Assembly (NCBI GenBank): GCA_918244965.1
Contig: CAKJYC010000049.1
Span: 22,286 to 86,285 of the forward strand
DNA from: Clostridiales bacterium
GTDB lineage: Bacteria > Bacillota > Clostridia > Christensenellales > CAG-138
Length of the DNA stretch: 64,000 bases
Direction: 5' to 3'
The notes below the pieces were generated by a model, which saw only the letters and a program-made list of their open reading frames with translations, searched no databases and was not told the origin of the DNA. The position numbers were made by a program, and so were the translations under genes. Shown piece by piece: positions 39,120 to 58,152 of this stretch. Numbering within the stretch: position 1 is the first letter of the stretch; each line of letters starts with the position of its first letter.

Positions 39120-39158
39120 GGACCGGCTGCAAATTGCAGTCGGTCCGATTCGTTTTTT
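39120..39158. terminator. Terminator hairpin between the convergent ABC and iol operons
   Basis: GACCGGCTGCA-AAT-TGCAGTCGGTC (one G-U pair), then CGATTCG-TTTTTT. Confidence 0.65.
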
Positions 39159-41096: not shown

Positions 41097-41888
41097 TCAA
41101 CCCTTGAAGATATGCTCGTTTGCGTCGGGCTTCCACAGCCACGCGTGCTCCGGATCGTCGATGCGCGTCTTTTTCCACGGATCGCCGTCCAGGTGCCGGA
41201 TGCCCCACGCGTAGCACATGGCGTAGCCGGGCGCGGCGACCTGCGAATGGAAGCCGTGATTGATGACCGCAAGCCCGTTGTGTCCGGTTTTGAAGATCTC
41301 ACCGTTGCTGAACCCCGCGCCGAAGCCGTTCGGATAGTCGAACCGGTAGAAATAGACCTCCGGCTGCGGATGGTGGTGCGGCGGATAGCTCGACCAGCGG
41401 CCGGGGAAGTTCAGCACCTCGCCCAGCACCATGTTCGAGAACGGCGCGTTGTCATAGTCGAAGAACGTCTTGATCTCGCGGCGCATGCAGCCCATCAGCT
41501 CGCCGTTCGCGCCCGCGTGCTGCACCTGCACCGTGTCCGGCGTGTACAGCACCGGTTCGTAGTCGCGCTCGTTTGCCGTCTGCTGGATGAACAGCTCGGC
41601 GTGCCCGTGCGCTTCGACCGTGATGCGGACCCTGCGCGGACAGAGCAGGCAGTACGCCTCGTGATAAAAGCAGTCGGGACGGCTCGCTTCGACGGCCTTG
41701 TCCGCAAAGCGCAGCGTGACCGCGCCCTCGAACAGCAGCACGGCCGTTTCCTTGTCCGGCTCCTCGATCGTATAGACGTCGCCTTCCTCCATGACGAGCA
41801 GGCCCACGTCCATCTGCGTGCCGAGATCGTCGACCTTCGCGTCGATATACGCGTTGTAGCCGCGATGCAGCTCCTTTTCAAAATACAT
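41097..41888 (-). CDS. iolB: 5-deoxy-glucuronate isomerase
   Basis: 263 aa cupin. GRWSSYPPHHH..., ...HLDGDPW...DPEHAWL, as in IolB/KduI-like proteins. Confidence 0.85.
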   Translation of the reverse strand: MYFEKELHRGYNAYIDAKVDDLGTQMDVGLLVMEEGDVYTIEEPDKETAVLLFEGAVTLRFADKAVEASRPDCFYHEAYCLLCPRRVRITVEAHGHAELFIQQTANERDYEPVLYTPDTVQVQHAGANGELMGCMRREIKTFFDYDNAPFSNMVLGEVLNFPGRWSSYPPHHHPQPEVYFYRFDYPNGFGAGFSNGEIFKTGHNGLAVINHGFHSQVAAPGYAMCYAWGIRHLDGDPWKKTRIDDPEHAWLWKPDANEHIFKG

Positions 41889-41897
41889 AGCCGCGCC

Positions 41898-42806
41898 TCA
41901 CAGTCCCGTATGCTCCGCAATGTAGCGGCGGCCCTTGATCGCGTATTCGAGCGGATTCGCCTTGGCGGGGTCCTGCTCGGCCTCGACCAGCAGCCAGCCC
42001 TCGTAATGCGCGTCGGAAAGGACCTTGAACACCGGATCGAAATCCACGTCGCCGTCGCCCGGCACGGTGAACGCGCCGTTGCGCACAGCGGTCAGAAAGC
42101 TCCAGTTGTTTTGACGCGCCTGCTCGACGACCGGCAGCCGCATATCCTTCAGATGCACATGGCCGACGCGGTCGACGTATTTTTTGAGCATGGCCAGCGG
42201 ATCCTCGCCCGCAAAGGTGAAGTGGCCGGTGTCGTAGCACAGAAAGACGTAGCGCGGATCGGTGTTCGCCATCATGCGGTCGGTTTCCTCGGCGGTCTGC
42301 ACGACGGTGCCCATGTGGTGATGGAAGCACAGCTTGAAGCCGCGCTCATAAGCGACCTTGCCGAGCGCGTCGAGCCCCTTGCACAGGCGGTCCCAGCCGT
42401 CGTCGTTCAGCACGGGCTTTTTGCCGCCGGTCAGGATCGGCGTCTCGGTCTGGCCCTGGATCGACCAGCTCTGCTCGGAGACGTTGATGCGGTTTGCGCC
42501 GACGGCTTCGAGAAAGTCCAGCTCACGGGTAAAGTCCGCGATGTTCTCTTCGAGGGGCTTTGTGAGCAGGAAGGAGGAGAACCAGCGGCTTGCAATGCGC
42601 ATGCCGCGAAGATCCAGCTCCCACTTGAGTTCCTTCGGGTCCTTCGGGTACTTGTTGCCGATCTCGCAGCCGGTGAAGCCCGCAAGCGCCATCTCGCTGA
42701 CGGTCTGGCGGAACGTGTTCTCTGCGCCGAGCTCCGGCATATCGTCGTTGCACCAGCCGATCGGCGCGATGCCGAGGTGCACCTTTTCTTTGTCAAACAG
42801 CGCCAT
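41898..42806 (-). CDS. iolE: myo-inosose-2 dehydratase
   Basis: IAPIGWCNDDMPELG, HHHMGTVVQTAEETDRMMANTDP, FTVPGDGDVDF, VEAEQDPAKANPLEYA match B. subtilis IolE motifs from memory. Confidence 0.9.
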   Translation of the reverse strand: MALFDKEKVHLGIAPIGWCNDDMPELGAENTFRQTVSEMALAGFTGCEIGNKYPKDPKELKWELDLRGMRIASRWFSSFLLTKPLEENIADFTRELDFLEAVGANRINVSEQSWSIQGQTETPILTGGKKPVLNDDGWDRLCKGLDALGKVAYERGFKLCFHHHMGTVVQTAEETDRMMANTDPRYVFLCYDTGHFTFAGEDPLAMLKKYVDRVGHVHLKDMRLPVVEQARQNNWSFLTAVRNGAFTVPGDGDVDFDPVFKVLSDAHYEGWLLVEAEQDPAKANPLEYAIKGRRYIAEHTGL

Positions 42807-42818
42807 GGGATACTCCTT

Positions 42819-43991
42819 TCAGATGCGGGCGACGCCGCTCTTTCTTGCCGCTTCGGCAACTGCCGCCGCGACCGCCGGGCCGACGCGCTTATCAAACGCC
42901 TTCGGAATGATGTAGTCTGCGGAAAGCTCGTCGTCGGAGATCAGGTCGGCCAGCGCCTTTGCCGCCGCCATCTTCATTTCCTCGTTGATGTCGCTTGCGC
43001 GCACGTCAAACGTGCCGCGGAAGATGCCGGGGAACGCAAGGACGTTGTTGATCTGGTTCGGGTAATCGCTGCGGCCCGTCGCAATGACCTTTGCGCCGCC
43101 GGCTCTTGCGTCGTCCGGGAAGATCTCGGGCGTCGGGTTCGCGCAGGCAAAGATGATCGCGTCGCGGTTCATGGTCTTTACCATCTCGGTCGTGACCGTG
43201 CCGGGCGCCGAAACGCCGATGAACACGTCCGCGCCGACCAGCTGATCGGCAAGGGAACCGGGCTTGCGTTCGAGGTTCGTGACCTCGGCCATCTCCTCCT
43301 TGATCCAGTTCAGACCGTCGCGGCCCTTGTAGATCGCACCCTTGCGGTCGCACATCGTGATGTGACGGAAGCCTGCGGAAAGCAGCAGCTTCACGATCGA
43401 CACCGCCGCCGCGCCTGCGCCGGAGGTGACAACACGGACGTCCTCCTTTTTCTTGCCGACGACCTTCAAAGCGTTCGTGAGCCCCGCCAGCGTGATGACC
43501 GCGGTGCCGTGCTGATCGTCGTGGAAGATCGGGATGTCGCACTTTTCCTTCAGCTTGCGCTCGATCTCAAAGCAGCGCGGCGCGGAGATGTCCTCCAGAT
43601 TGATGCCGCCGAACGAGCCGGACAGCAGATACACCGCGTTGACGAACTCATCGACGTCGTGCGTCTTGATGCACAGCGGGAACGCGTCGACGTTGCCGAA
43701 CGACTTGAACAGCACGCACTTGCCCTCCATGACCGGCATGCCCGCTTCGGGGCCGATGTCGCCGAGGCCGAGCACCGCGCTGCCGTCGGTGATGACCGCG
43801 CAGAGGTTGTGACGGCGGGTCAGCTCGTAGCTCTTGTTGATGTCCTTCTGGATCTCAAGGCACGGCTGCGCGACGCCGGGAGTGTACGCAAGGCTCAGAT
43901 CGTCCTTGGTCGCGACGGGAACCGTTGCGATGACTTCGATTTTGCCCTTCCATTCTCCGTGAAGACGGAGCGATTCTTCCGCATAATTCAT
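42819..43991 (-). CDS. NAD(P)-dependent malic enzyme (short form, no PTA domain)
   Basis: 390 aa. LSLAYTPGVA, TDGSAVLGLGDIGPEAGMPVMEGK, FGGINLEDI, HDDQHGTA, GAGAAA. Confidence 0.9.
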   Translation of the reverse strand: MNYAEESLRLHGEWKGKIEVIATVPVATKDDLSLAYTPGVAQPCLEIQKDINKSYELTRRHNLCAVITDGSAVLGLGDIGPEAGMPVMEGKCVLFKSFGNVDAFPLCIKTHDVDEFVNAVYLLSGSFGGINLEDISAPRCFEIERKLKEKCDIPIFHDDQHGTAVITLAGLTNALKVVGKKKEDVRVVTSGAGAAAVSIVKLLLSAGFRHITMCDRKGAIYKGRDGLNWIKEEMAEVTNLERKPGSLADQLVGADVFIGVSAPGTVTTEMVKTMNRDAIIFACANPTPEIFPDDARAGGAKVIATGRSDYPNQINNVLAFPGIFRGTFDVRASDINEEMKMAAAKALADLISDDELSADYIIPKAFDKRVGPAVAAAVAEAARKSGVARI

Positions 43992-44021: not shown

Positions 44022-45272
44022 TTATGAAACGACGGTCGGCAGCGTCGAGCCGCCGTACGGCATCGCCAGCACCGTCGCGTTCGGTCCCAGTTTCAAAAAT
44101 GCGTGATCCAGCGCTTCCTGCGCGGTCTTATACGGTACAAGAAAGATCGACCGCACAAAGTCGTCGTCCAGCTCGGACACAAGATCGACCTCGGCCCGTT
44201 CCAGCACCATCGCGATCGCCGCGGCCTTGTGCCCGCCGAGACGGAATTCACGGCCGATGCGCTCGATCAGGCTGTGCGCCGAGGGCGCTTCGGTCATCCA
44301 TTGCTCGAACGTTTTTTCGCCGAGACCCTCACGGCACGAGCCGATCAGGATGATGACGCCGCCGTCGCGCACCGCGTGCTTTGCGTTGTCCAGCGCCTTC
44401 TGCGTTTGATAGAGGTTCAGGTCCTTCGGCGCGCCGCCCTGCGAAACCAGCACGATATCGGCGGGCGCAGAGAGTTCCTTGCGGTACAGCGTGTCGAGGA
44501 AGCTGCAGCCCTCGCGGTGCGCCAGTACGGCGTCGCCCGCGACGGCTTTCAGGATCTCCTTATGCTCGGAAAGCACGACGTTTACGATGAAGTCGATCCC
44601 GACCATCGCGCCGGCCTCCTCGATATCCATGCGCAGCGGGTTCGTATCGAGCGCGCCGGCCTTCGCCTCGGGCAGTACCATGCGGCTGTGGTTGGCCTGG
44701 ATCGCCGCGCGCGTGGACACGCCGGGCATGATCGCCTTTGCGCCGCCGGAATAGCCCGCAAAGTAGTGGTACTCGATGTTGCCGAGACAGATCCTGCGAT
44801 CGGCCTCCGCCACGACGCGCGTGATGTCCACGGGCGTCCCGCGCGAGGTCACGCCGTAGGAAACGCAGTCAAGGGGATCGCTGTCGACGCAGCGGATCTC
44901 GGCCCACGCGCGTTCGCCCGCAAGCCGACGCTTTTCCTCGTCGGTCTGACGCCTGTGGCTGCCGAGCGCGAACACCAGCGTGATATCCTTCGGATCCACG
45001 CCGCCCGCGTACAGCTCGTCCAGAAGGGCGGGCATGACCTTTGCGGTCGGCATCGGACGAGTGACGTCGCTCGTGACGATCGCCACCGTTTCGCCCGGAT
45101 GCACGATGTCGCGAAGCAGCGGGGTGCCGATGGGCGCCGAAAGCGCGCGTCTGACCTCCGCCTCGCCCGTAAGGCCCACCGGGACCTCGTTCGCGTGCAG
45201 CTCGCCGATCAGGTTCTGTTCCGGCACCTCGACCTCCTGAACGCCTGTGCCGAATCCGAAACGCAGCTTCAT
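44022..45272 (-). CDS. LarA-family nickel-pincer-dependent 2-hydroxyacid racemase/epimerase homolog
   Basis: 416 aa, DUF2088/LarA-like. ...IVTSDVTRP..., ALGSHR, HYFAGYSGGAKAIMPG (Lys at the position that tethers the NPN cofactor in LarA, from memory), LYQ..KAL. Confidence 0.8.
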   Translation of the reverse strand: MKLRFGFGTGVQEVEVPEQNLIGELHANEVPVGLTGEAEVRRALSAPIGTPLLRDIVHPGETVAIVTSDVTRPMPTAKVMPALLDELYAGGVDPKDITLVFALGSHRRQTDEEKRRLAGERAWAEIRCVDSDPLDCVSYGVTSRGTPVDITRVVAEADRRICLGNIEYHYFAGYSGGAKAIMPGVSTRAAIQANHSRMVLPEAKAGALDTNPLRMDIEEAGAMVGIDFIVNVVLSEHKEILKAVAGDAVLAHREGCSFLDTLYRKELSAPADIVLVSQGGAPKDLNLYQTQKALDNAKHAVRDGGVIILIGSCREGLGEKTFEQWMTEAPSAHSLIERIGREFRLGGHKAAAIAMVLERAEVDLVSELDDDFVRSIFLVPYKTAQEALDHAFLKLGPNATVLAMPYGGSTLPTVVS

Positions 45273-45275
45273 GGC

Positions 45276-46238
45276 TTACTTTCTCTTGAGCACGGCCTTC
45301 GCCTGCTGCTCGATGTGCGCGGCGGTCAGACCGAAGCGCTCCATCAGATAGCTCTGCGTGCCGACCTCGCCGAACTCGTCCTCGACCGCGACGCACGCGG
45401 CGGGGACGGGGCAGCGCTCCGCAAGCACTTCGAGAATGTTGTTGTACAGGCCGCCGTGACGGTTCGCGTTCTCGGCGACGACGACCGCGCCGCATTTTTT
45501 CGCAAACGCTTCAACGGCGTCCGCGTCGATCGGCTTGATCGTGAAGCAGTCCACGACCGCGGCGGAGATCCCCTGCGCTTCGAGGGACGCGGCCGCCTTC
45601 ATGGCCTCGTGCAGCATCAGACCTGCGGCGAAGATCACGACGTCGCTGCCGTCGCGGAGCGTGATCGCCTTGCCGATCGGAAGCTCGCTGCCGTCCGCAT
45701 AGACGCGGGCGAGCTGCTTTCTGCCGACGCGGATATACTTGACGCCGGGGCGGTTCTGACACTGGCGCAAAACGCTTGCAAGGCACGCCGGGTCGGACGC
45801 GTCGATGACGGTCGCGCCGGGCAGCGCGTTGTAGAGCGCCACATCCTCAAACGGCATGTGCGTGCCGCCGTTCATCGTGGCGGTAACGCCGGGGTCGGTG
45901 CCGATCACGGTCATGTCGTTCTTTGCATAGCCGCCGGACAGAAAGACCTGATCGTAGCAGCGGCGGGAGGCAAACGTGCCGAAGCTGTGGATGATCGGCT
46001 TGAAGCCTGCGACCGCGAGACCGGCCGCCACGCCCGCCATGTTCGACTCGGCGATGCCGCAGTCGATCGCGCGTTCGGGATTCGCCTTCGCCCACTTCAG
46101 CGTGCCGGAGCAGCTCATCAGGTCGGCGTCGAGGAAGATCGCGTTCGGGTCGTGATCCACGATGTCGGCGACCGTCGCGCCGATGACGTCCTTGCACAGA
46201 CGGGGATCCAGTTCCCCGTTATAAACGATGTTCAACAT
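45276..46238 (-). CDS. Transketolase, C-terminal (pyrimidine-binding) subunit
   Basis: 320 aa. ...AIDCGIAESNMAGVAAGLA..., ...THMPFEDVAL.... 3-nt gap from the N-terminal subunit gene. Confidence 0.9.
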   Translation of the reverse strand: MLNIVYNGELDPRLCKDVIGATVADIVDHDPNAIFLDADLMSCSGTLKWAKANPERAIDCGIAESNMAGVAAGLAVAGFKPIIHSFGTFASRRCYDQVFLSGGYAKNDMTVIGTDPGVTATMNGGTHMPFEDVALYNALPGATVIDASDPACLASVLRQCQNRPGVKYIRVGRKQLARVYADGSELPIGKAITLRDGSDVVIFAAGLMLHEAMKAAASLEAQGISAAVVDCFTIKPIDADAVEAFAKKCGAVVVAENANRHGGLYNNILEVLAERCPVPAACVAVEDEFGEVGTQSYLMERFGLTAAHIEQQAKAVLKRK

Positions 46239-46241
46239 TGC

Positions 46242-47084
46242 TCAGCCCTCCAATGCATCCAATTCCGCTTTCAGCTGCGCGGTCCAGCGCTCGAAGCGCT
46301 CGTCGTTTACCGGCATGCTGTGGTTCATCGCGGTGTTTTCGACCTCCGCGATGCCGTGGCCCTTCACGGTGTCCAGCACGATCGCGTAGGGCTTGTCGCC
46401 GCCTGCACGCGTGCGTTCGAGGGCGGCCGCGATCGCTTCAACGTCGCCGCCGTCGACCTTGACCGTGTCGAAACCGAACGCTTCCATCTTCGCGACGAAA
46501 TCGCCCATCGGCAGGACCTCGTCGAGATACCCGTCGAGCTGGCGCTTGTTCCAGTCGATCAGAACGACCAGATTTCCGAGCTTCTTCGCGCTTGCGAACA
46601 TGAAGGACTCCCAGCACTGGCCCTCGTTCGATTCGCCGTCGCCGACGATCAGAAAGACGCGGTTTTTGCGGCCCTTGATGCGATTGCCGAGCGCAAGCCC
46701 CGCCGCCTGCGAGGTGCCCTGTCCCAGCGAGCCGGTCGTCACGTCGACGCCGGGCGTCTTGGTGCGGTCGCAGTGGCTCGGAAGCCGCGTGCCGCCGCGG
46801 TTCAGGGTCTTGAGTTCCTCATACGGGAAGAACCCCTTGAGCGCGAGCGTGGCGTACACCGCCGGGCCCGCATGCCCCTTCGAGACCACGAGACAGTCGC
46901 GATCCGGCCATTTCGGGTCCTCCGGGCGGACGTTCATTTCGCGGCCGTACAGGACCGCCATCGTGTCGGCAATGCTCATCACGCCGCCGACGTGGCCCGA
47001 ACCGATCGAGTGGATCGCTTCAAGCGCGGCCATGCGGATGCGCGTCGCAAACGCCTGCAGTTGTTTTTTTTCCTGGATATCCAT
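46242..47084 (-). CDS. Transketolase, N-terminal (TPP-binding) subunit
   Basis: 280 aa. GSGHVGGVMS, SKGHAGPA, GSLGQG, GDGESNEGQ. Confidence 0.9.
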   Translation of the reverse strand: MDIQEKKQLQAFATRIRMAALEAIHSIGSGHVGGVMSIADTMAVLYGREMNVRPEDPKWPDRDCLVVSKGHAGPAVYATLALKGFFPYEELKTLNRGGTRLPSHCDRTKTPGVDVTTGSLGQGTSQAAGLALGNRIKGRKNRVFLIVGDGESNEGQCWESFMFASAKKLGNLVVLIDWNKRQLDGYLDEVLPMGDFVAKMEAFGFDTVKVDGGDVEAIAAALERTRAGGDKPYAIVLDTVKGHGIAEVENTAMNHSMPVNDERFERWTAQLKAELDALEG

Positions 47085-47093
47085 AGCTCCTCC

Positions 47094-48347
47094 TTATTGT
47101 TGCGGCAGGGTCGAACCGTGCCGCAGGGCCTTGACGACGGGCAGCTCTTCGCCGCTCAGGAAGCGGATCAGCGCGCCGCCGCCGGTGCAGATATAACCGA
47201 TCTTGTCGGTCAGCTTGTATTTTTCGGTCGCCGTGATGCTGTCGCCGCCGCCGAGGACCGTAAAGCCCTCGGTGTCCGCAAGCGCCTGCCACAGCGACTT
47301 GGTTCCGTATTCGCTCGCTTCCTGCTCGAACACGCCCATCGGGCCGTTGACGAACACCGTTTTGGCCGAAAGGATGCAGGCGCGATACTTTGCCGCAGTC
47401 GCGTGTCCGATGTCGACCGCGCCGACGTCGCTCGGCATCATGTAGATCGACGCCTCGCGCCGTTCGCCGTTTTCGACCCACGCAAGGTCGTCAGGCAGCA
47501 GGATCCTGTCGCCGAACCGCTCGTAGAGCGCCTTCGCACGGTCGAAGAACTCGGCGTAGTTCGACTTGCAGATAAACGCGCGGCTATAGCTTCCGATCTC
47601 CTGTCCGAGCGCGATCAGGAAGATGTTTGCGACCAGGCCCCCGGTCAGGATCGTATCGGCGACCCCGCGCTCCAGGACCGTCTGCATCATCAGAAACGCG
47701 TCGGAGATCTTTGCGCCGCCGAGCGCGAACACGCACGGACGGGCGGGGTCCTCCATGACGGAGGAGACGGTGCAGTATTCCTTCTCGAACAGCCTGCCCA
47801 TCGCGGACGGCAGGATCTGCTCGAACCCGCACAGGCTCGGCTGATCGCGGTGCGCGGCGGCAAACGCGTCGCACACGTACGCGTCCGCAAGCGGGGCGAG
47901 CTTCTGCACCAGCAGCGTTTTTGCCTGCTGCTCGTGCGAAAGATGCAGCTTCATTTCAAAGAGCGTCTGCTCCTCCGCGACGAAGCGCACGTTGTCCAAA
48001 AGCAAAACATCGCCATCGCAGAGATCACGGATGGCTTGTCTTGCCGCGGGGCCGCAGACGTCGTCGATCCATTTGACCTCCCGGCCGAGAAGGCGGGAGA
48101 GGACCGCGGCGTGCGGTTTGGTCGTATAAAAATTCTTGTACTCGATGTCGCTGCCCTGATGCGCCAGCAGCACGACCTTTGCGCCCTTTTCGGACAGCTC
48201 GCGGATCGTCGGCACGCAGGCCGTGATGCGGTTGATGCTTTTCAGCGTCCCCGCATCACGATCCACGGGCTGATTGATATCCACGCGGCAAAGGACCGTT
48301 TTTCCGCGCACCGAGAGTTCGTCCAGCGTTCTGATGCCGAATCGCAT
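47094..48347 (-). CDS. pgk: Phosphoglycerate kinase family protein, archaeal-type sequence
   Basis: 417 aa. RVDINQPV, LLAHQGS (canonical H(Q/L)GRP), LLLDNVRF, FVNGPMGVFE, GGGDSI. Confidence 0.8.
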   Translation of the reverse strand: MRFGIRTLDELSVRGKTVLCRVDINQPVDRDAGTLKSINRITACVPTIRELSEKGAKVVLLAHQGSDIEYKNFYTTKPHAAVLSRLLGREVKWIDDVCGPAARQAIRDLCDGDVLLLDNVRFVAEEQTLFEMKLHLSHEQQAKTLLVQKLAPLADAYVCDAFAAAHRDQPSLCGFEQILPSAMGRLFEKEYCTVSSVMEDPARPCVFALGGAKISDAFLMMQTVLERGVADTILTGGLVANIFLIALGQEIGSYSRAFICKSNYAEFFDRAKALYERFGDRILLPDDLAWVENGERREASIYMMPSDVGAVDIGHATAAKYRACILSAKTVFVNGPMGVFEQEASEYGTKSLWQALADTEGFTVLGGGDSITATEKYKLTDKIGYICTGGGALIRFLSGEELPVVKALRHGSTLPQQ

Positions 48348-48359
48348 GTGGAACCTCGC

Positions 48360-49418
48360 TTATTTCTTCTTGAATCTGCCGATCTTCAGGTATTCGTTCG
48401 TCTTTGCCGTGCCCTCTTCGCGGGTCAGCTGCATCTGCATCGCGGCGCGGATCGCGTCGATCGTTTCGGGGATCGTGACGCTCTCCTGCGGGATGTTGAT
48501 CGCGTACATGATGTCGTTGCCGCTCTCAACGATGCTGTCCTCCCACAGCCCGATCTCGTACATGTCGCCTCTGCGGTTGCCGAGATCGCGCGCGTACTTG
48601 AACAGGCTCGCGTTGCCCTTGAAGCCCTCGTCGATCGTGACGGTACGGATGCGCGGATGCGCGCGGAACGCTTCGAGCGCCATCTCGCGGGTGATCTTTT
48701 TGCCGTCTTTGGCGGTCGCCAGCACGGTGATGATGTGGCCGTGCGTGACCGGCGTGTGCACGAGGATGCCCGTCGCTTCGACGTGCGGCATGATCGTCAT
48801 CAGGTCGACCGCCTGATGCGACGGCGCCTTGTCGATCTGCAGCGCGTTGGTGAGGCCGCGGTGATAGTCGCCCGGATCCGCGACGCGGCGGATGATCGTG
48901 ATCGCGACCTTCTCGATGCCGATCGCGCGGTCAAGGCAGTCGACCGTGCGGATCAGGCCCGTCGTGTTGCAGCTGGTCAGCTTGAGGTAATCCTGACCGA
49001 CGCCCTTTTCATAGTTCGCATAGCCGTGGAAGAACACGTCCGCGACGGAGTTCTTTTCGCCGCCCTGGAAGATCGCCTTGACGCCGACCTTCTGATACAG
49101 CTCCTTGTTCTTTGCGCCGACGCCGCCCGGCGAAGAGTCGAGCATGATATCGACGCTTCTGCAAAGCTCCTCGAACGTGCCCGCAACCGGGATGTCATAG
49201 CGGTCGAACGCTTCACGGTCCGCGCCGTCGACGAGGTAGAGATTGTATTTGACGCCGTTTGCGCCGATCATGTCGTTCTCGCGCAGCGCGCGGATCGACA
49301 GTGTGGGCGCGAGGTCCGCAATGCCCACCAGCTCCATGTCGCCCTGCATGGCGACGCCGTCGGCCAGACGCTGACCGATCGTGCCGTAACCGGCGACTCC
49401 GACTCTGACTTTAGCCAT
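48360..49418 (-). CDS. gap: Type II (archaeal-type) glyceraldehyde-3-phosphate dehydrogenase family protein
   Basis: 352 aa from ATG 49418, with AAAGGAG 6 nt upstream. MAKVRVGVAGYGTIGQRLADGV...MELVG and the active-site SCNTTGL (Cys150) are hallmarks of archaeal GAPDH, not bacterial GapA (SCTTN). Confidence 0.8.
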   Translation of the reverse strand: MAKVRVGVAGYGTIGQRLADGVAMQGDMELVGIADLAPTLSIRALRENDMIGANGVKYNLYLVDGADREAFDRYDIPVAGTFEELCRSVDIMLDSSPGGVGAKNKELYQKVGVKAIFQGGEKNSVADVFFHGYANYEKGVGQDYLKLTSCNTTGLIRTVDCLDRAIGIEKVAITIIRRVADPGDYHRGLTNALQIDKAPSHQAVDLMTIMPHVEATGILVHTPVTHGHIITVLATAKDGKKITREMALEAFRAHPRIRTVTIDEGFKGNASLFKYARDLGNRRGDMYEIGLWEDSIVESGNDIMYAINIPQESVTIPETIDAIRAAMQMQLTREEGTAKTNEYLKIGRFKKK

Positions 49419-49432
49419 ATGCTGCTCCTTTC

Positions 49433-50446
49433 TCAGATCTCGTCGATGCGGACGGGACGGTTTTCCTTGAGGGACTTGCTGCACGCAAGCGCCAGCTTGA
49501 TGGACAGAAGGCCGTCCTCGATGCCGACCCACGGTTCCTTGCCGTTCTCGACGCAGTCGATGAACTCGCGGACCTCCGCCTGATACGAGCCCATGTAGCG
49601 CTCAAGGAAGAACCACAGCGGCTTTTCGCCCGTCACGCCGTCCACCGTGGACAGCACGATGTTGGACGCGGAATCGTTCGCGTTCTGCACACAGCCCTTC
49701 GAGCCGAAGACCTCGCCGCGCTGATCGTAGCCGTAGACCGCCTTTCTGGAGCCGTCGATGGTGGCAAGCGCGCCGTTAGAGAGCTTCAGCGTGATCGTCG
49801 CGGTGTCCACGTCGCCCGCTTCGCCGATCGCCGGATCGATGAGGCACGCGCCCTGCGCGTACAGCTCGACGATCTCCTGACCGGAGAGGTAGCGCACCAT
49901 GTCGAGGTCGTGGATCATCATGTCCATGAAGATGCCGCCGGAAACAGCGACGTACTTGGCGGGCGGGGGCTCCGGATCGCGCGAAGAGATGCGGACGAAC
50001 TGCACCTCGCCGATCTTGCCGTCCTCGATCGCCTTGCGCATCGCGCGGTAGTTGTGATCGTAGCGGCGGTTGAAGCCGACCTGATAGACGAGCTTCTTCG
50101 GGCTCGCCGCGAGCGCCGCCTTGACCTCTTCGATCTTTGCGATGCTCTGGTCGATCGGCTTTTCGCAGAAGATGTGCTTGCCCGCGGCGATCGCTTCAAG
50201 CGAAAGCGGGGCGTGCTGATCGGTCGACGCGCAGATCAGGACCGCGTCGATGCGGTCGTCCTCAAGGATCTTGCGATAGTCCGAATATACGTTCTCGATG
50301 CCTGCGGACTTTGCCCACGCGGCGACCTCCGGCTTGATGAACGGGTCCGCGATCGCGAGGATCCGCGCGCCGGGAACGCCGGTGAGAATGCTCTTTGCGT
50401 GGACCTGACCGATGCGGCCCGCGCCGATAATACCTACATTGACCAT
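49433..50446 (-). CDS. iolG: myo-inositol 2-dehydrogenase (Gfo/Idh/MocA family)
   Basis: GIIGAGRIGQVHAK, IFCEKPI, VGFNRRYD, SRDPEPPPAKY...GGIFMDMMIHDLDM closely resembles rhizobial IdhA/IolG from memory. Confidence 0.85.
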   Translation of the reverse strand: MVNVGIIGAGRIGQVHAKSILTGVPGARILAIADPFIKPEVAAWAKSAGIENVYSDYRKILEDDRIDAVLICASTDQHAPLSLEAIAAGKHIFCEKPIDQSIAKIEEVKAALAASPKKLVYQVGFNRRYDHNYRAMRKAIEDGKIGEVQFVRISSRDPEPPPAKYVAVSGGIFMDMMIHDLDMVRYLSGQEIVELYAQGACLIDPAIGEAGDVDTATITLKLSNGALATIDGSRKAVYGYDQRGEVFGSKGCVQNANDSASNIVLSTVDGVTGEKPLWFFLERYMGSYQAEVREFIDCVENGKEPWVGIEDGLLSIKLALACSKSLKENRPVRIDEI

Positions 50447-50497: not shown

Positions 50498-52063
50498 TCA
50501 TTCGCCGTACGGCTCGCCCTTGCCTTCGACGAGCGAGGCATAGGTGCGTTGGATCTTTGCCCAGTTCTGGTCGCGGTCGAGCGCGACGCCTCTGCCGACG
50601 CCGGACACGATGAGACCCGCGCCCTTCTGCTCAAGCATTTCGCCGAACTCGCGCAAAAGCGCGGGCGCGCTGCCGGGCTCGGTGGAGCGGCCGTCGAAGA
50701 TGACATGCACGAACACGTTTTCGACGCCCGCCTTCTTCGCCATATCGCACAGCGCGAGCGGATAGTCGATCGACCCGTGCGAGGACTTTTTCGTGAGCAG
50801 CGCAAAGAGATGCAGCGCCGTGCCGCGCTCTTTGACGCCGTTCAGCGTGTGCAGAAACACCGGGTTCTCCGCAAACGAGCCGTCCTTCATCGCGTTGTCA
50901 AGGCGCACGTCGTCCTGCAGGACCACGCGGCCGGAGCCGAGATTGATGTGGCCCGCCTCGGAATTGCCCGTCTTGCCCGCCGCAAGACCGACCGCCGGGC
51001 CGGACGCTTCGAGCTTCGCGTAGGGATACTCCCGAAGCAGCGCGTCCCACGCGGGCGTGTCCGCCGTAAAGATCGGGTTGTTGTCGGTCGGAAGGTCGAG
51101 ACCCCAGCCGTCGCAGATGAGCAGTAAAACCTTGTTCGGCTTTGCAAAGCGGAACAGCGGCGTGCCGGTCATTTCCGCGGGCGCGGGAAGGCCCATTGCG
51201 GACAGCACCGTGGGCGCGACGTCGCAGAGTCGGCCGCTCGTTTCGAGCTGTTCCGTGCCGTCGCCGATCGCGATGCAGGCGACGAGATTCGTCGTGTGCG
51301 AAACGTGCGGCTTGCCCTCCGGCGTGTGCAGAATCTCGATGTTGCCGTGGTCCGCGGTCACAAGTACAGTATAGCCCTTTTCGCGCGCGTACGCAACGGT
51401 TTTCCCGACATATTTGCTGATCGCTTCGGCTGCGACCGGCTTTGCCGCGTCCGAGGACGTATGGCCGATGACGTCGCCGTTTGCGAAGTTCGTCACGATG
51501 AAATCGTAGCCCTTGTCCAGCCCGCCGCACAGCGTTTCATACACCTCCGGCAGCTTCAGCTCCGGCACCGTTTCAAACGGCACGCCCTTGGGCGAGGGGA
51601 TGCGGATGTCCGTCTCGCCCTCGAACGGCTTCTGATTGCCGCCGTTGAAGAAGAACGTGACGTGCGCAAACTTTTCGCTCTCGGCAAGGTGCATCTGCGT
51701 CCTGCCGTTTTCACTCAGCACCTCGGCGAGCGTCTTCTGCACCTTGCTCGGCGCAAAGGCGATCGGCAGATAGGTGTATTTTTCGCTGTACATTGTCAGG
51801 ATCACGAAGTCCAGCGGATCGAGCTGCGTTCTCTCGAAGCCCTTGAACGCCGGATCGGTGAACGCATCGGTCAGCTCGGTCTCGCGCTCGCCTCTGCGGC
51901 AGCAGAAGATCACGCCGTCGCCGGGACGAACGAGACCGACCGGGCTGCCGTTTCGGTCGACAAGGTTCAACGGCTCGAAATGATACTCCGAGGCGACGGA
52001 GGCAAAGCGCTTTTGGGCAGCGCGGGCCAGCGCGTCGCCGCCGGCAAACTTGTATTCGCTCAT
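50498..52063 (-). CDS. Circularly permuted 2,3-bisphosphoglycerate-independent phosphoglycerate mutase (iPGM)-like phosphotransferase
   Basis: 521 aa from ATG 52063, with AAAGGAG 8 nt upstream. Residues 1-304 carry canonical C-terminal iPGM motifs (ESEKFAHVTFFFNGG, ANGDVIGH, TADHGN, SHTTN, EMTG). Residues 308-521 carry canonical N-terminal motifs (LLLICDGWG, GNSEAGH, LHLFALL, DGR, LDRDQNW). Confidence 0.8.
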   Translation of the reverse strand: MSEYKFAGGDALARAAQKRFASVASEYHFEPLNLVDRNGSPVGLVRPGDGVIFCCRRGERETELTDAFTDPAFKGFERTQLDPLDFVILTMYSEKYTYLPIAFAPSKVQKTLAEVLSENGRTQMHLAESEKFAHVTFFFNGGNQKPFEGETDIRIPSPKGVPFETVPELKLPEVYETLCGGLDKGYDFIVTNFANGDVIGHTSSDAAKPVAAEAISKYVGKTVAYAREKGYTVLVTADHGNIEILHTPEGKPHVSHTTNLVACIAIGDGTEQLETSGRLCDVAPTVLSAMGLPAPAEMTGTPLFRFAKPNKVLLLICDGWGLDLPTDNNPIFTADTPAWDALLREYPYAKLEASGPAVGLAAGKTGNSEAGHINLGSGRVVLQDDVRLDNAMKDGSFAENPVFLHTLNGVKERGTALHLFALLTKKSSHGSIDYPLALCDMAKKAGVENVFVHVIFDGRSTEPGSAPALLREFGEMLEQKGAGLIVSGVGRGVALDRDQNWAKIQRTYASLVEGKGEPYGE

Positions 52064-52077
52064 GATCGGTTCTCCTT

Positions 52078-52854
52078 TCAATGGATGCGCGGCGTCGGGT
52101 CCTCAGCGGTTTCGGGACAGAAGCGCCCGTCGCCGGGGAAGACGCGCAGCAGCTCGTCAAAGTGATGGATGATGCAGTCGGGCCGGTTCTCCTCGGTCAG
52201 CTTGAATTCGAGCCCGCCGGGGTATTCCGCGCCGACCGTGCCGGCGAAGCAGGACTGCTTCGCGCCGATGATGTCGCGCTTCAGGTTGTCGCCGACGAAG
52301 CAGCTCTCCTCCGGCCGCACGCCGGCTTCCGACAGCGCGAGGAAATAGATCGCGGGATGCGGCTTTCGGAGCATCGTCACCGAGCTTTGCTGCACCGTGC
52401 AGAACAGGTCGCGGATGCCGTCGCGATCGAGCCACTCGTCAATCTCGACCGTGCCGATCAGGTCGCTGATGATGCCGACGAGGTAGCCGCGCGTGCGCAG
52501 CTCCTTCACGGTTTCAATGCCCTTTTCGACGACCACGCGCTCGCCCTTCGCCCTGCGGAAGCAGTAGGTCAGCTCGACGGCGGCCTTCTCGATTTTCTCA
52601 CGGTCCCATTCCGGCACGAGCCAGCGGGTCCAGAGCATCGTTTCCGGCGCTTCGCACATGTACTTCAGCGCCCATTCACGGTAGCCGTCGTAGCGCTTGT
52701 TCAGGAAATCGTAGAACGCGTCGGCGTCCATGTCGGTGCCGCACAGTTCCTTGATGCGCTCGCGCGCCTGCTTGATAAACGGACGGTTGTCCTCGTCGAC
52801 CACGCGGAATGTGCCGCCGAGATCGAGAAAGATCGCCTTGATGTTTTCTTTCAT
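52078..52854 (-). CDS. HAD-IA-like hydrolase, tandem paralog 4
   Basis: FLDLGGTF, IISD, LRKPHPAIY, VGDNLKRDI. Start at MKENIKA, with GGAGGG upstream, 2 nt after the upstream stop. Confidence 0.8.
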   Translation of the reverse strand: MKENIKAIFLDLGGTFRVVDEDNRPFIKQARERIKELCGTDMDADAFYDFLNKRYDGYREWALKYMCEAPETMLWTRWLVPEWDREKIEKAAVELTYCFRRAKGERVVVEKGIETVKELRTRGYLVGIISDLIGTVEIDEWLDRDGIRDLFCTVQQSSVTMLRKPHPAIYFLALSEAGVRPEESCFVGDNLKRDIIGAKQSCFAGTVGAEYPGGLEFKLTEENRPDCIIHHFDELLRVFPGDGRFCPETAEDPTPRIH

Positions 52855-52856
52855 AT

Positions 52857-53624
52857 TCAGACCCTCCGGACCTTGTCCCATGCGACGTGCGGCGCCTTCG
52901 GGAAGATCTCCTTGAGTTCGTTGAAGTCGAAGATGACCGCGTCGGGACGGTTCTCATCCGTGATCTTCTCCTTCGCGAGCTTCTCCGGCGTCGTGTACAG
53001 GATGAACATGCCGTAGCCCGCAAGGCGCGTGCCCTCGACGTCGCGGTTCAGGTTGTCGCCGATGTAGACGCAGCGCTCCGGGCGAACGCCCAGGAGGTCG
53101 CACGCCTTGTTGGAGATCGCGGGATCGGGCTTTCTTATGCCCTCGACGCACGAGAGCAGCACCGCGCCGAAATACTGTTCAAGCCCGTCGGCCTTGAGCC
53201 AGCGCGGGATCTCCTGCGAGGTCACGAGGTTTGAGATGATGCCGAGCTTGTAGCCGTTCGCGTACAGGTCTTTGATCGACTGCGCGCCGTTCGGGGCGAC
53301 CACGCGGCGGCCGTCCTTGTTGCGGTACTCGATCGTCAGCTCGATCGCATTCTTTTTGATCAGCTCACGGTCGTATTCGGGCGTCAGCCACTTGGTCCAA
53401 AGCTCCTCCTCCGGCGCTTCGCGCATCGTCTCGAAGCACCACTTGCGGTAGCCCGCGTAGCGGTAGTCGAGGAATTTGCAGAATTCGTCCGGGTCGCCTG
53501 TTTCGCCGCACATTTCGGCGATCTTGCGGCGCGCCTCCGCTTCAAACGCGGCGTCGCGCTCCACCAGACGCAGCGTGCCGCCGAGATCGTAGAAGATCGC
53601 GTCAAATTCTCGTTCGTTTGCCAT
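52857..53624 (-). CDS. HAD-IA-like hydrolase, tandem paralog 3
   Basis: FYDLGGTL, IISN, IRKPDPAI, IGDNLNRDV. Confidence 0.8.
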   Translation of the reverse strand: MANEREFDAIFYDLGGTLRLVERDAAFEAEARRKIAEMCGETGDPDEFCKFLDYRYAGYRKWCFETMREAPEEELWTKWLTPEYDRELIKKNAIELTIEYRNKDGRRVVAPNGAQSIKDLYANGYKLGIISNLVTSQEIPRWLKADGLEQYFGAVLLSCVEGIRKPDPAISNKACDLLGVRPERCVYIGDNLNRDVEGTRLAGYGMFILYTTPEKLAKEKITDENRPDAVIFDFNELKEIFPKAPHVAWDKVRRV

Positions 53625-53636
53625 ACTTCGTTCTCC

Positions 53637-54371
53637 TTATTTGTTTTCGTCCGAAAGGGGCGGGAAGATGTCCAGAAGCTGACCGATCCGGGTGATCGTG
53701 TAATCGGGCTGCAGAATGATTTCCTGCGGCTCGTTTTTGATCGTGTCCGGCTCGTCGATGCGGATCATCAGCGCATAGCCGGCCTTGCGCGTGCCCTCGA
53801 CGTCGCGGATCGGATTGTCGCCGACGTACGCGCACTGTTCGGGCGTCTTGCCGATCGCGCGGCAGGCGAGGTGATAGATCGCGGGGTCGGGCTTACGAAG
53901 CCGTACCTTGGAGGACAGGATGACCGTCTTGAAGTAGTGCGCCACGCCGTCGGCGATCATCCAGTCGGGGATCTCGGTCTCGGTGATCGTGTTCGCGATG
54001 ATGCCGAGCGTGTAGCCGCGGCGGTCCAGCTCGATGATCGTGGACTTCACGTCGTCGCGCGGGACGCGCCGTCCATCATGGTCGCGCCACAGACGCGTCA
54101 GTCTGCCTGCGTGCGCGCACACGCGCTCCGGATCGTAATCCGGCAGCAGGTGCTGGCTCCAGAGCTCCATCTCGCCCGCGTCAAGAAGCGTCTTTTTCAC
54201 CATGCTGCGGTACTTCTTCCAGCGCGCTTCGAGCTTCTCGAAGAACACGTCGTGCGGCTCGGTCGCGCCGACCAGCTCCATCAGTTCCCGCTCCGCCGCA
54301 TCGGAGAATTCCTTGTCCTTGATGACGATGCGCAGCGTGTTGCCGACGTCAAAGAAAATGGTGTCCGTCAT
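53637..54371 (-). CDS. HAD-IA-like hydrolase, tandem paralog 2
   Basis: FFDVGNTL, IIAN, LRKPDPAIY, VGDNPIRDV. Start at MTDTIFF, with GGAGAGAGG upstream. Confidence 0.8.
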   Translation of the reverse strand: MTDTIFFDVGNTLRIVIKDKEFSDAAERELMELVGATEPHDVFFEKLEARWKKYRSMVKKTLLDAGEMELWSQHLLPDYDPERVCAHAGRLTRLWRDHDGRRVPRDDVKSTIIELDRRGYTLGIIANTITETEIPDWMIADGVAHYFKTVILSSKVRLRKPDPAIYHLACRAIGKTPEQCAYVGDNPIRDVEGTRKAGYALMIRIDEPDTIKNEPQEIILQPDYTITRIGQLLDIFPPLSDENK

Positions 54372-54402
54372 TGTCCTCTCTCCTTTTCTGTATTGCAAAC
54401 TG

Positions 54403-55161
54403 TTATTGGTGATTCCGCTCCCGGAGGATCCCCGGCAGCTCGTTCAGTTCCCGGATCACATAATCGGCCTTCGGCGCGTCCGGCCCCTGAAAGGCGACGT
54501 CGCGGTGGGCGATCGAGGGGTTGTTGATGCGCACGATCAGGCCGAGGCCCGCATTGCGCGCGCCGAGCACATCGCGGGAGATCGTGTCGCCGACATAGCC
54601 GGTCTCCGCCGCCGTCACGCCCATGCGGGAAAACGCGATCTCAAAGATCCTCGGATCGGGCTTGCGGATCCCGGTCTCGCTCGACATCACGATGCATTCC
54701 ATGTACTGCGCGATCCCGTATTCGTTCATCATGTGCGGGACGAGCGAGGTGGAGATGATGTTGGAGATGATGCCCTGCCGGACGCCCATCGCGTGGATCT
54801 CTTTGATCGTTTCGACCAGATACGGCTTTCGCATGTTGATCATCCGCTCGTAGTCATAGAGGAAGCTCAGCTCCTCGGCGATCGGGGCAAGCCGCTCCTC
54901 GCCGATGTGAAACTCCTTGAGGTAGTATTCGTTCCAGATGACGGGGGCGGGCAACTCGGTCTTCTCGCGCTCGCCGCGGTGCTTGTACGCTTCGCCGTTC
55001 TCGCGCAGCAGCAGCTTCAGCTGTTCCGGCGTCGTGTCGAGCACGATGCCGTAATCGTTGAGCCTGCGGATCAGCCGGTCGGCAAAGCGAAGCTCCGAAT
55101 CCGCGGTGCGCGTGGCGGACTGCAGTGTTCCGCCGAGATCGTAAAGCAGCGTCGTGATCAT
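54403..55161 (-). CDS. HAD-IA-like hydrolase, tandem paralog 1 (first gene of the operon)
   Basis: LYDLGGTL, IISN, IRKPDPRIF, VGDTISRDV. Start at MITTLLYD, with GGAGG upstream. Confidence 0.8.
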   Translation of the reverse strand: MITTLLYDLGGTLQSATRTADSELRFADRLIRRLNDYGIVLDTTPEQLKLLLRENGEAYKHRGEREKTELPAPVIWNEYYLKEFHIGEERLAPIAEELSFLYDYERMINMRKPYLVETIKEIHAMGVRQGIISNIISTSLVPHMMNEYGIAQYMECIVMSSETGIRKPDPRIFEIAFSRMGVTAAETGYVGDTISRDVLGARNAGLGLIVRINNPSIAHRDVAFQGPDAPKADYVIRELNELPGILRERNHQ

Positions 55162-55190
55162 GGTTTCGCCTCCGAATTTCCCCATATTTA

Positions 55191-55241
55191 CGAAAACGTT
55201 TGCGCTATCATAATTGTAAACCGCTTACCGGTTTTTGTCAA
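55191..55241 (-). promoter_or_regulatory. Promoter plus operator of the 15-gene HAD-iol operon
   Basis: Minus strand: TTGACA (55241-55236), 17 nt, TACAAT (55218-55213), 7 nt, then GCGCAAACGTTTTCG (55205-55191). Confidence 0.7.
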
Positions 55242-56523: not shown

Positions 56524-56540
56524 ATACAGAGGAGGGGACT

Positions 56541-58131: not shown

Positions 58132-58152
58132 ACCGGACGGGGAGGGACCCCT

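Follow-up and report, generated by a model that had tools for sequence, protein, structure and literature searches.

A 64,000-nucleotide stretch of DNA from a Clostridiales bacterium (the window) carries, in one operon with genes of inositol catabolism, adjacent genes for a homologue of the type II (archaeal-type) glyceraldehyde-3-phosphate dehydrogenase (GAPDH) and for a homologue of phosphoglycerate kinase (PGK). We consider it likely that this pair has been neofunctionalised and serves a transketolase-dependent fermentation of myo-inositol as a "carboxylate copy" of lower glycolysis. This reading, the best available explanation, is supported by comparative genomics, and gene context is the strongest evidence for it. 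With somewhat less assurance, we favour four further claims: that the PGK homologue would be the first natural enzyme of its family with a substrate other than 1,3-bisphosphoglycerate (1,3-BPG) and 3-phosphoglycerate (3-PG), that D-malyl-1-phosphate would be a natural metabolite not reported before, that the transketolase of the operon would be blind to phosphate, and that GAPDH, PGK, and a racemase would form a portable trio.

Proposed pathway

IolG, IolE, and IolD, all recognised at the equivalog level, would convert myo-inositol to 5-deoxy-D-glucuronate, which would be turned into 2-deoxy-5-keto-D-gluconate (DKG) by an isomerase of the IolB/KduI family that is divergent and misses its NCBIfam cut-off. 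With the structure CH2OH-CO-CHOH-CHOH-CH2-COO-, DKG can be regarded as a carboxylate isostere of xylulose 5-phosphate, in which -CH2-COO- takes the place of -CH2-OPO3. Judging from the structures, it should also have by its ketol group the D-threo configuration that is required of transketolase donors. A split transketolase would take the C5-C6 ketol unit of DKG and leave (R)-3-hydroxy-4-oxobutanoate, that is, D-malate semialdehyde, which would be the carboxylate isostere of D-glyceraldehyde 3-phosphate (G3P).

We propose that the GAPDH homologue is a phosphorylating, NAD-dependent D-malate semialdehyde dehydrogenase, which with NAD+ and phosphate would form D-malyl-1-phosphate, the isostere of 1,3-BPG. 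The PGK homologue would be a D-malyl-1-phosphate:ADP phosphotransferase, yielding ATP and D-malate, the isostere of 3-PG. A LarA-family racemase would then convert D-malate to L-malate, and malic enzyme would release pyruvate and CO2. Such a route would not need the kinase IolC (5-dehydro-2-deoxygluconokinase), the DKGP aldolase IolJ, or the malonate-semialdehyde dehydrogenase IolA. It would spend no ATP on activation and gain one ATP by substrate-level phosphorylation.

Gene context of the GAPDH-PGK pair

The pair lies in a 15-gene minus-strand operon that runs from 55185 down to 39162 with short intergenic gaps throughout. In the 5' to 3' direction, the operon encodes four HAD-family hydrolases, a circularly permuted iPGM homologue, IolG, the GAPDH homologue, and the PGK homologue, followed by the split transketolase, the LarA-family malate racemase, malic enzyme, IolE, the IolB/KduI-family isomerase, and IolD. 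A LacI-type regulator is divergently transcribed from it. The pair is flanked by iolG on one side and by the split transketolase on the other, and its two genes are separated by exactly 12 nt, gcgaggttccac; this arrangement had been given in the initial annotation, and its coordinates are exact. A plausible ribosome-binding site precedes each gene. Crude motif scans gave no match for IolC, IolJ, or IolA in the 64-kb window, and the operon holds no other aldehyde dehydrogenase that would link DKG to malate.

A scan of one genome per species with the GAPDH protein found a relative in at least 556 species genomes, and the best 80 loci were analysed. These belong to Clostridia, Oscillospiraceae, Lachnospiraceae, Christensenellales, Erysipelotrichaceae, Anaerovoracaceae, and Sphaerochaetaceae; gut and rumen are the main sources. 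A PGK gene lies within 300 nt downstream of the GAPDH gene in 58 of the 65 loci with enough sequence. Where at least 8 kb of downstream sequence is available (43 loci), the neighbourhood includes PGK in 40, LarA in 37, transketolase in 32, IolE in 32, IolD in 31, and malic enzyme in 25. Neither the window nor 83 loci (1.23 Mb) yielded motifs of a type I gapA (SCTTN), a pgk of the SH(L/M/F)GRP type, tpi, or eno in crude motif scans, and a PfkB motif occurs in only 2 of the 83 loci.

The cluster extends to the Thermotogota. In the complete genome of Kosmotoga pacifica (CP011232.1), the genes are ordered GAPDH-PGK-LarA-TktN-TktC-IolB-IolD-IolE-IolG-IolG-malic enzyme, and the PGK is only 46% identical. 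A PGK-TPI fusion (P0222) was considered as the housekeeping PGK of Kosmotoga and dropped, its composition being that of a high-GC organism.

The trio of GAPDH, PGK, and LarA is also found in other surroundings. In an Oscillibacter metagenome-assembled genome (MAG; locus L076, 4849-8953), it is preceded by genes for LarC (nickel insertion), a LarB-like protein with an AIR-carboxylase domain, and a nickel/peptide-type ABC transporter; the cofactor genes of the racemase thus travel with the module. In locus L085 (6107-12542), genes for an MttB-family methyltransferase and a class III omega-aminotransferase, the latter frameshifted in the assembly, stand directly before GAPDH-PGK-LarA, and in locus L084 (2618-5513) a PGK of the subfamily adjoins an MttB (trimethylamine methyltransferase-like) gene. 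This context suggests, speculatively, a second, amine-derived source of the aldehyde, for example 4-amino-3-hydroxybutyrate or a carnitine-related compound. Transamination of 4-amino-3-hydroxybutyrate would give malate semialdehyde and might thus be a second entrance to the module. Locus L083 (9143-11478) represents a third kind of context: a distant PGK of the subfamily (HQGDPS) adjoins, in divergent orientation, a type II GAPDH of the bacterial subfamily, and the two lie among genes for aldehyde:ferredoxin oxidoreductases, with no iol or LarA gene nearby.

The PGK homologue and its remodelled substrate loop

The PGK homologue matches the PGK family profile over its full length, with residues 8-400 on profile positions 1-379, and has the two-domain architecture of the family. 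At E<1e-20 it matches 46 PGK structures, the best being that of Pyrococcus horikoshii (300 bits; Bacillus 239 bits). The archaeal likeness claimed in the initial annotation is borne out by this match, by the presence of all the motifs quoted there (VDINQP, LLDNVRFVAEE, NGPMGVFE, and GGGDS), and by the nearest named relatives outside the subfamily, which are archaeal (Helarchaeota and an uncultured archaeon; 41-43% identity).

The same annotation had pointed to HQGS, with Ser66, in place of a near-universal H(L/Q)GRP motif. In a MAFFT alignment of 189 PGKs, which includes 69 orthologues and 103 other representatives and whose columns follow human numbering, the Arg65 column holds Ser in all 69 orthologues; among the other representatives, it holds Arg in 101 and Lys in 2. 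In archaea, the motif does not strictly follow H(L/Q)GRP: P. horikoshii PGK reads HQGKP, with the position still basic. The window protein reads LLAHQGSDIEY, with Ser66 for Arg65, Asp67 for Pro66, Ile68 for Gly67, and an inserted Tyr70. Further along, the loop has no conserved basic residue; its last position is variously K, Q, N, D, or H. A mere shift of the arginine, named in the initial annotation as an outcome that would speak against a new function, is ruled out because the loop lacks such a residue.

Of the PGK residues, Arg65, Arg122, and Arg170 are hydrogen-bonded to the 3-phosphate, and His62 is in contact with the bridging oxygen; the 2-hydroxyl group is bound by Asp23 and Asn25 (PMC7729029); the arginine of the motif had rightly been described as a substrate contact, Arg65 being among the 3-phosphate binders (PMC7729029). 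The window PGK retains Asp23, Asn25, Arg38, His62, Arg122, Arg170, Lys215, GGGDS, and the STGGGA region, and the residues of the nucleotide site and of the carboxylate end are kept in 69 of 69 orthologues. On these assignments, the pocket is intact at the end where acyl phosphate, carboxylate, and 2-hydroxyl are held. Scored over the basic patch proposed for scoring in the initial annotation, Arg38, His62, Arg122, and Arg170 are kept and Arg65 is replaced by Ser, so that the patch for the 3-phosphate is incomplete (His62, Arg122, and Arg170 kept, Arg65 lost), with acidic gains at positions 66 and 171. By the alignment, the phosphate-ester end of the pocket is poorer by one positive charge and richer by two negative charges. 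A carboxylate, shorter and with a single charge, in place of a phosphate ester would fit a site without the outermost phosphate-binding arginine and with new acidic residues next to those that remain.

An unbiased search for positions specific to the subfamily returned 12 columns, 6 of which lie in the Arg65 loop or beside Asn25 (Gln26, Ser66, Asp67, Ile68, the inserted Tyr70, and Asn72). Ser66, Asp67, Ile68, and an Asp beside Arg170 are invariant in the 69 orthologues, and Gln26, which replaces Val26 next to Asn25, and the inserted Tyr are present in at least 95% of the subfamily. The residue beside Arg170, Asp168 in the column of human Ala171, is invariant in the gut clade only. These loop and site residues are rare or absent in the 103 other PGKs. 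A further six residues are inserted after RFxxEE in comparison with archaeal PGK.

When 1.84 billion representative proteins were scanned, the scores of the ranked PGKs showed a step: representatives at 383 bits or above read HQG followed by S, D, or G, and all of them lack a basic residue at position 65; those at 339 bits or below read HQGR or HQSR. In a neighbor-joining tree, the PGKs with Ser, Gly, or Ala at position 65 form a clade with a bootstrap value of 82/100. The alignment, ranking, and tree together describe a clade-wide remodelling, not a point change.

The GAPDH homologue

The GAPDH gene starts with an ATG at 49418, and GAAAGGAG lies 7 nt upstream. The protein contains MAKVRVGVAGYGTIG and LTSCNTTGL; MAKVRVGVAGYGTIG and SCNTTGL had been taken as hallmarks of the archaeal type II enzyme in the initial annotation, and the protein indeed passes both type II models, with 394.8 bits for NF003251 'type II GAPDH' (cut-off 185) and 295.8 bits for TIGR01546 (cut-off 232.9). 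Models of type I GAPDH give only ~20 bits. The SCTTN motif of the bacterial GapA, said to be lacking, occurs nowhere in the window. All four structures matched in the PDB are of archaeal GAPDHs.

The catalytic Cys140 (SCNTT) and His219 are retained. In archaeal GAPDH, Lys33 determines the preference for NADP(H), Arg167 and Arg168 bind the phosphate of G3P, and Ser139, Asn141, Arg167, His193, and His194 bind inorganic phosphate (PMC12041015). The Lys33 column holds Asp in the window protein, in 78 of 78 locus orthologues, in Kosmotoga, and in L083; it holds Lys in all 120 archaeal enzymes compared. The replacement of Lys33 by Asp predicts the use of NAD+ rather than NADP+, which would suit a catabolic enzyme. 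The same set of bacterial proteins has Gln in the column of His194, and here, too, the archaeal residue is present in 120 of 120. The scoring of phosphate-site residues proposed in the initial annotation thus finds the site mostly conserved: Arg167/Arg168 and four of the five inorganic-phosphate residues are kept, and His194 is exchanged for Gln. The sequence IIRRVADP around the two arginines is conserved in all members.

Compared with the 120 archaeal enzymes, the bacterial proteins also have Pro for His299, changes just before His219, and an inserted segment after residue 43, all common to the window protein, the 78 locus orthologues, Kosmotoga, and L083. On these alignments, the homologue is a member of a distinct bacterial subfamily of type II GAPDH with an intact substrate-phosphate site. 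A pair of arginines binds carboxylates as readily as phosphates. The retention of Arg167/Arg168 therefore speaks neither for nor against a new substrate.

Among the best 80 of the at least 556 relatives, which span Bacillota families and Spirochaetota MAGs, GAPDH identity is 84-97%, and the neighbours of the GAPDH are clearly less conserved (PGK 66-90%, LarA 53-90%, and transketolase 47-90%). This pattern points to recent transfer between phyla combined with an unusually strong constraint on the GAPDH. Identities of 84-97% between Bacillota and Spirochaetota MAGs also fit a mobile accessory cluster rather than a vertically inherited housekeeping gene. The earlier suggestion of a laterally acquired or anciently diverged pair agrees with these identities, with the type II character of the GAPDH, and with the archaeal neighbours of the PGK at 41-43%. 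Recent acquisition in the host genome is unsupported, the G+C content of the pair (0.62-0.64) matching that of the window.

Transketolase and malate racemase

In the split transketolase, the substrate site is altered: TDPG replaces THxG (His to Asp), xNGG replaces GEDG (Asp to Asn), and Lys16 replaces the N-terminal Arg. All 43 loci and Kosmotoga have Asp115 and Asn123; Lys16 is found in 39 of the 43, with Arg in three and in Kosmotoga. In the yeast and Escherichia coli enzymes, the His of THxG binds the substrate phosphate. By these changes, the cluster transketolase looks like a distinct subfamily for non-phosphorylated substrates.

The LarA proteins all match the model of the LarAH6 family best. 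Those of the window (557.9 bits) and of L076 (579.4 bits) lie above its cut-off of 500, and those of Kosmotoga (498.0) and L085 (478.5) fall just below it. Malate racemase activity has been measured for the LarAH6 family, which is biochemically characterised; its role in the cell was left open in that work (PMC7583248, PMC11770544). Fischer projections of DKG predict D-malate as the product of the proposed route, and a racemase would be necessary because that product is D-configured; only such a product needs one.

The idea that the pair was recruited for a non-glycolytic substrate, put forward in the initial annotation, is supported by sequence and comparative data from several sides: the loss of Arg65 in an invariant loop, the linkage to the racemase, the lack of another aldehyde dehydrogenase in the operon and of detectable IolC, IolJ, and IolA, and the loss of the transketolase His.

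Alternative explanations

A simpler possibility, which we regard as unlikely, is that the two proteins are ordinary glycolytic enzymes acting on G3P, 1,3-BPG, and 3-PG. They could be housekeeping copies, or extras of the operon for triose phosphate that arises from the transketolase product via pentose phosphates, with the permuted iPGM as a third step. Both proteins pass the family models of type II GAPDH and PGK, and they keep the catalytic residues, the GAPDH arginines 167 and 168, and four of the five residues of the PGK basic patch; the motif scan of the 64-kb window also detects no second gap or pgk. However, in 83 loci (1.23 Mb) neither tpi nor eno is ever found beside the pair, which is linked to the malate racemase (37 of 43 loci) and not to glycolytic genes, and 84-97% identity across phyla with a patchy distribution is unlike housekeeping genes. 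An iPGM homologue with the catalytic Ser motif does lie two genes upstream, but its partners across loci are the HAD genes rather than the pair. Purely glycolytic enzymes would moreover leave the operon with no enzyme to convert the transketolase product to malate, and would have to be reconciled with a PGK phosphate loop that is remodelled in every member.

The trio might instead be a general module for some other alpha-hydroxy aldehyde acid, such as tartronate semialdehyde, the semialdehyde of a longer 2-hydroxy-dicarboxylate, or the L-enantiomer, and LarA would isomerise the product. We judge this quite unlikely. The window and L076 LarA proteins (557.9 and 579.4) pass the malate-racemase equivalog, malic enzyme follows in 25 of 43 loci and in Kosmotoga, and cleavage of DKG by transketolase would yield exactly the D-configured C4 semialdehyde. 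Such a module would account for the trio without iol genes in L085, where it stands behind the MttB-family protein and the aminotransferase, and in L076, where it stands beside genes for the nickel-pincer nucleotide cofactor; yet transamination of 4-amino-3-hydroxybutyrate would lead to the same C4 semialdehyde. The LarA proteins of L081 (498) and L085 (478.5) score just under the malate-racemase cut-off of 500, and malate racemases are known to epimerise tartrate as well (PMC11770544). A reductive module, from malate via malyl phosphate to malate semialdehyde as the transketolase acceptor for a C6 acid, would have an anabolic role and seems highly improbable to us: it would draw on the reversibility of the GAPDH and PGK reactions and on the typically anabolic role of archaeal type II GAPDHs, but the exchange of Lys33 for Asp predicts NAD+, not NADPH, the operon has no genes that would use the product, and catabolic iol genes, a LacI-type regulator, and a decarboxylating malic enzyme at the end of the route are at odds with synthesis.

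Several observations nevertheless weigh against the oxidative malate semialdehyde route that we prefer. Beyond family membership, its steps are what we infer from sequence. With both substrate-phosphate arginines and four of the five inorganic-phosphate residues in place, the GAPDH sequence is equally compatible with G3P, and the PGK keeps four of the five residues of its basic patch. Yeast PGK mutants of Arg65 stay active on 3-PG, and a single substitution at this position is no proof of a new substrate for that reason. Nor is a new Asp near a carboxylate-binding site obviously favourable. In the neighbor-joining tree, the Kosmotoga-type HQGD PGKs lie near the gut clade and form no exclusive clade with it, the smallest split that unites them also holding two Arg65 sequences; the tree thus does not show a single origin of the Arg65 loss. 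As for context, the close relatives L001-L004, L013, L027, and L075 have no cluster transketolase, and L005 has neither PGK nor LarA. The iPGM homologue of the operon, though permuted and linked to the HAD genes, could be read as a third glycolytic enzyme.

Comparison with known systems

The window pair shares folds, families, and acyl-phosphate chemistry with the archaeal GAPDHs of Methanothermus fervidus (1CF2) and P. horikoshii (2CZC) and with the PGK of P. horikoshii (2CUN). The catalytic Cys and His and Arg167/Arg168 are common to the GAPDHs, with an identity of only ~36% in global alignment. For the PGKs, which are 41-43% identical, the hinge, the nucleotide site, and the contacts of Asp23, Asn25, and Arg38 to the 2-hydroxy-carboxylate end are common. 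In contrast to the archaeal pair, the genes of the window are bacterial and lie in an inositol/malate operon, not with glycolytic genes. By alignment, each protein fails one feature that defines its family, namely the complete 3-phosphate patch for the PGK and the NADP-determining Lys33 for the GAPDH.

The first four steps of the Bacillus-type iol pathway (IolG-E-D-B-C-J-A), catalysed by IolG, IolE, IolD, and IolB, would be common to both routes. Whereas that pathway continues with IolC, IolJ, and IolA to dihydroxyacetone phosphate and malonate semialdehyde, the window has in their place transketolase, the GAPDH-like and PGK-like proteins, racemase, and malic enzyme, which would invest no ATP and give malate as the C4 product.

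A synthetic malyl-phosphate pathway (Walther et al. 2017, PMC5481828) has the same triad of malate, malyl phosphate, and malate semialdehyde and likewise combines a kinase with a phosphorylating dehydrogenase of the GAPDH superfamily. Its enzymes are an engineered aspartokinase and ASADH, its direction is reductive, and the carboxyl group concerned is C4 of L-malate (PMC5481828). Malate kinase and malate semialdehyde dehydrogenase activities, and their intermediates, were stated there to be unreported in nature (PMC5481828). The route proposed here would differ in that the acyl phosphate is on C1, beside the hydroxyl group of D-malate, and in that homologues of PGK and type II GAPDH would work in the oxidative, ATP-forming direction.

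The carnitine pathway of Acinetobacter baumannii proceeds through the same aldehyde, 3-hydroxy-4-oxobutanoate, to the same D-malate and then to pyruvate (PMC11353897). There, a non-phosphorylating enzyme of the ALDH superfamily oxidises the aldehyde with no gain of ATP, and D-malate dehydrogenase decarboxylates D-malate directly (PMC11353897). In the inositol operon, a phosphorylating GAPDH-type enzyme and a kinase, followed by a racemase and an L-malic enzyme, would do the same work.

The sulfo-transketolase pathway of sulfoquinovose degradation (SqwGH) also employs a split transketolase on a sugar with another anion in place of the terminal phosphate and releases a short anionic aldehyde. 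Its anion is a sulfonate, not a carboxylate, and the aldehyde is not known to be handled by homologues of GAPDH or PGK.

Significance of the proposed route

A literature search, which did not cover subscription-only papers, found none in which transketolase, malate racemase, malate semialdehyde, or malyl phosphate is connected with the catabolism of inositol. The fermentation route is apparently undescribed, and it is widespread. For Dysosmobacter welbionis, inositol fermentation without iolJ was reported in 2026, with ad hoc substitutes proposed, in a paper whose main text makes no mention of GAPDH, PGK, malate, or racemase (PMC13311982). If our reading is correct, it might explain inositol fermenters that were reported to lack iolJ and iolA, of which D. 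welbionis is an example. It would add a new ATP-conserving branch of myo-inositol metabolism in abundant Clostridia of gut and rumen, in Spirochaetota, and in Thermotogota, with at least 556 species concerned. Fermentation of dietary inositol and phytate is linked to the output of short-chain fatty acids and to host health.

PGK is regarded as a one-reaction family across all life; a PGK clade with a re-specified substrate site would change this view. It would also correct a systematic misannotation, as the labels 'phosphoglycerate kinase' and 'type II GAPDH' would be wrong in at least hundreds of MAGs. The route would mimic with carboxylates the complete sequence xylulose 5-phosphate, G3P, 1,3-BPG, 3-PG, and anaerobes could use myo-inositol with an entry that is ATP-neutral and an exit that yields ATP. 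The largest group of LarA-type racemases would gain a physiological role, which its discoverers listed as open (PMC7583248), and natural enzymes would become available for malyl-phosphate chemistry, for which enzymes have so far been made by design (PMC5481828).

Features of the operon and flanking genes

The features of the operon are listed in Table 1. The operon likely ends at the hairpin that lies where the 3' ends of iolD and of the convergent ABC ATPase gene face each other, judging by the hairpin sequence. The IolB homologue is a clear member of the KduI/IolB family and reaches 93.5 bits on the IolB equivalog TIGR04378, below the cut-off of 205. This isomerase (41097-41888) may be unlike the IolB of Bacillus.

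Table 1. Coordinates of the features discussed, as positions in the window
Feature	Position	Strand	Evidence or remark
Promoter-like site TTGACA-17-TACAAT	55213..55241	-	Upstream of first operon gene; 11/12, consensus match only
Upstream module: four HAD-family hydrolase paralogues and circularly permuted iPGM homologue	50498..55185	-	Same operon
IolG, myo-inositol 2-dehydrogenase	49433..50446	-	TIGR04380, 448.2 bits (cut-off 355)
Type II (archaeal-type) GAPDH homologue, 352 aa	48360..49418	-	NF003251, TIGR01546, PDB matches
Asp35 codon (replaces archaeal Lys33)	49314..49316	-	Alignment
Active-site SCNTT motif, catalytic Cys	48960..48974	-	Motif scan; alignment to 1cf2 and 2czc
Gln202 codon (replaces His194, inorganic-phosphate site; PSHH to PSHQ)	48813..48815	-	Alignment
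PGK-family kinase, 417 aa	47094..48347	-	PF00162, 379 bits, full length
Remodelled substrate loop His63-Asn72, HQGSDIEYKN	48132..48161	-	Alignment of orthologues with 103 other representatives
Transketolase N-terminal subunit (binding thiamine diphosphate, ThDP)	46242..47084	-	PF00456, 170.7 bits
Transketolase C-terminal (Pyr) subunit, altered substrate site	45276..46238	-	Best PDB match: split transketolase of C. hydrogenoformans, 6yaj
LarA-family nickel-pincer malate racemase (predicted D-malate to L-malate)	44022..45272	-	NF052593 'malate racemase, LarAH6 family', 557.9 bits (cut-off 500)
Malic enzyme (predicted L-malate to pyruvate + CO2)	42819..43991	-	PF00390, PF03949; PRK12861, 389.5 bits, match to its malic-enzyme part
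IolE, inosose dehydratase	41898..42806	-	TIGR04379, 406.1 bits (cut-off 290)
Divergent IolB/KduI-family isomerase (predicted 5-deoxy-glucuronate to 2-deoxy-5-keto-gluconate)	41097..41888	-	PF04962, 158 bits
IolD, trihydroxycyclohexane-1,2-dione hydrolase	39162..41084	-	TIGR04377, 905.7 bits (cut-off 715)
Hairpin, 12-bp stem and T-run	39120..39146	.	Flanked by 3' ends of iolD and of convergent ABC ATPase gene; consensus match only

The HAD/iPGM module is present as a block in 16 loci and complete in 13. Its iPGM homologue (50498-52081, minus strand) is circularly permuted: residues 317-525 correspond to residues 5-213 of the Bacillus stearothermophilus iPGM, and residues 37-309 correspond to its residues 235-508. 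The catalytic GNSE(A)GH motif is retained, identity among related loci is 70-86%, and the gene always accompanies the HAD genes rather than the GAPDH-PGK pair. Together with the four tandem HAD paralogues (52078-55185, minus strand) and a PHP-domain protein (56520-57260, plus strand), it makes six phosphoesterase-type genes beside the inositol operon. As pure speculation, these might dephosphorylate inositol phosphates. Phytate carries six phosphates.

In the divergent unit, the LacI regulator and the PHP gene are followed by genes (57175-59358, plus strand) for a weakly scoring PfkB-family kinase and an MFS transporter. The kinase gene (57175-58131) was ruled out as IolC, having no match to the IolC equivalog and a weak PfkB score of 36.6 bits. 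On the other side, a fused double permease of the phosphonate/sulfate/molybdate type (35648-37477) lies upstream of an ABC-transporter ATPase gene (37480-39102, plus strand; 540 aa), and both converge on the end of the inositol operon. A large insertion splits the ABC_tran domain of the ATPase into two matched stretches.

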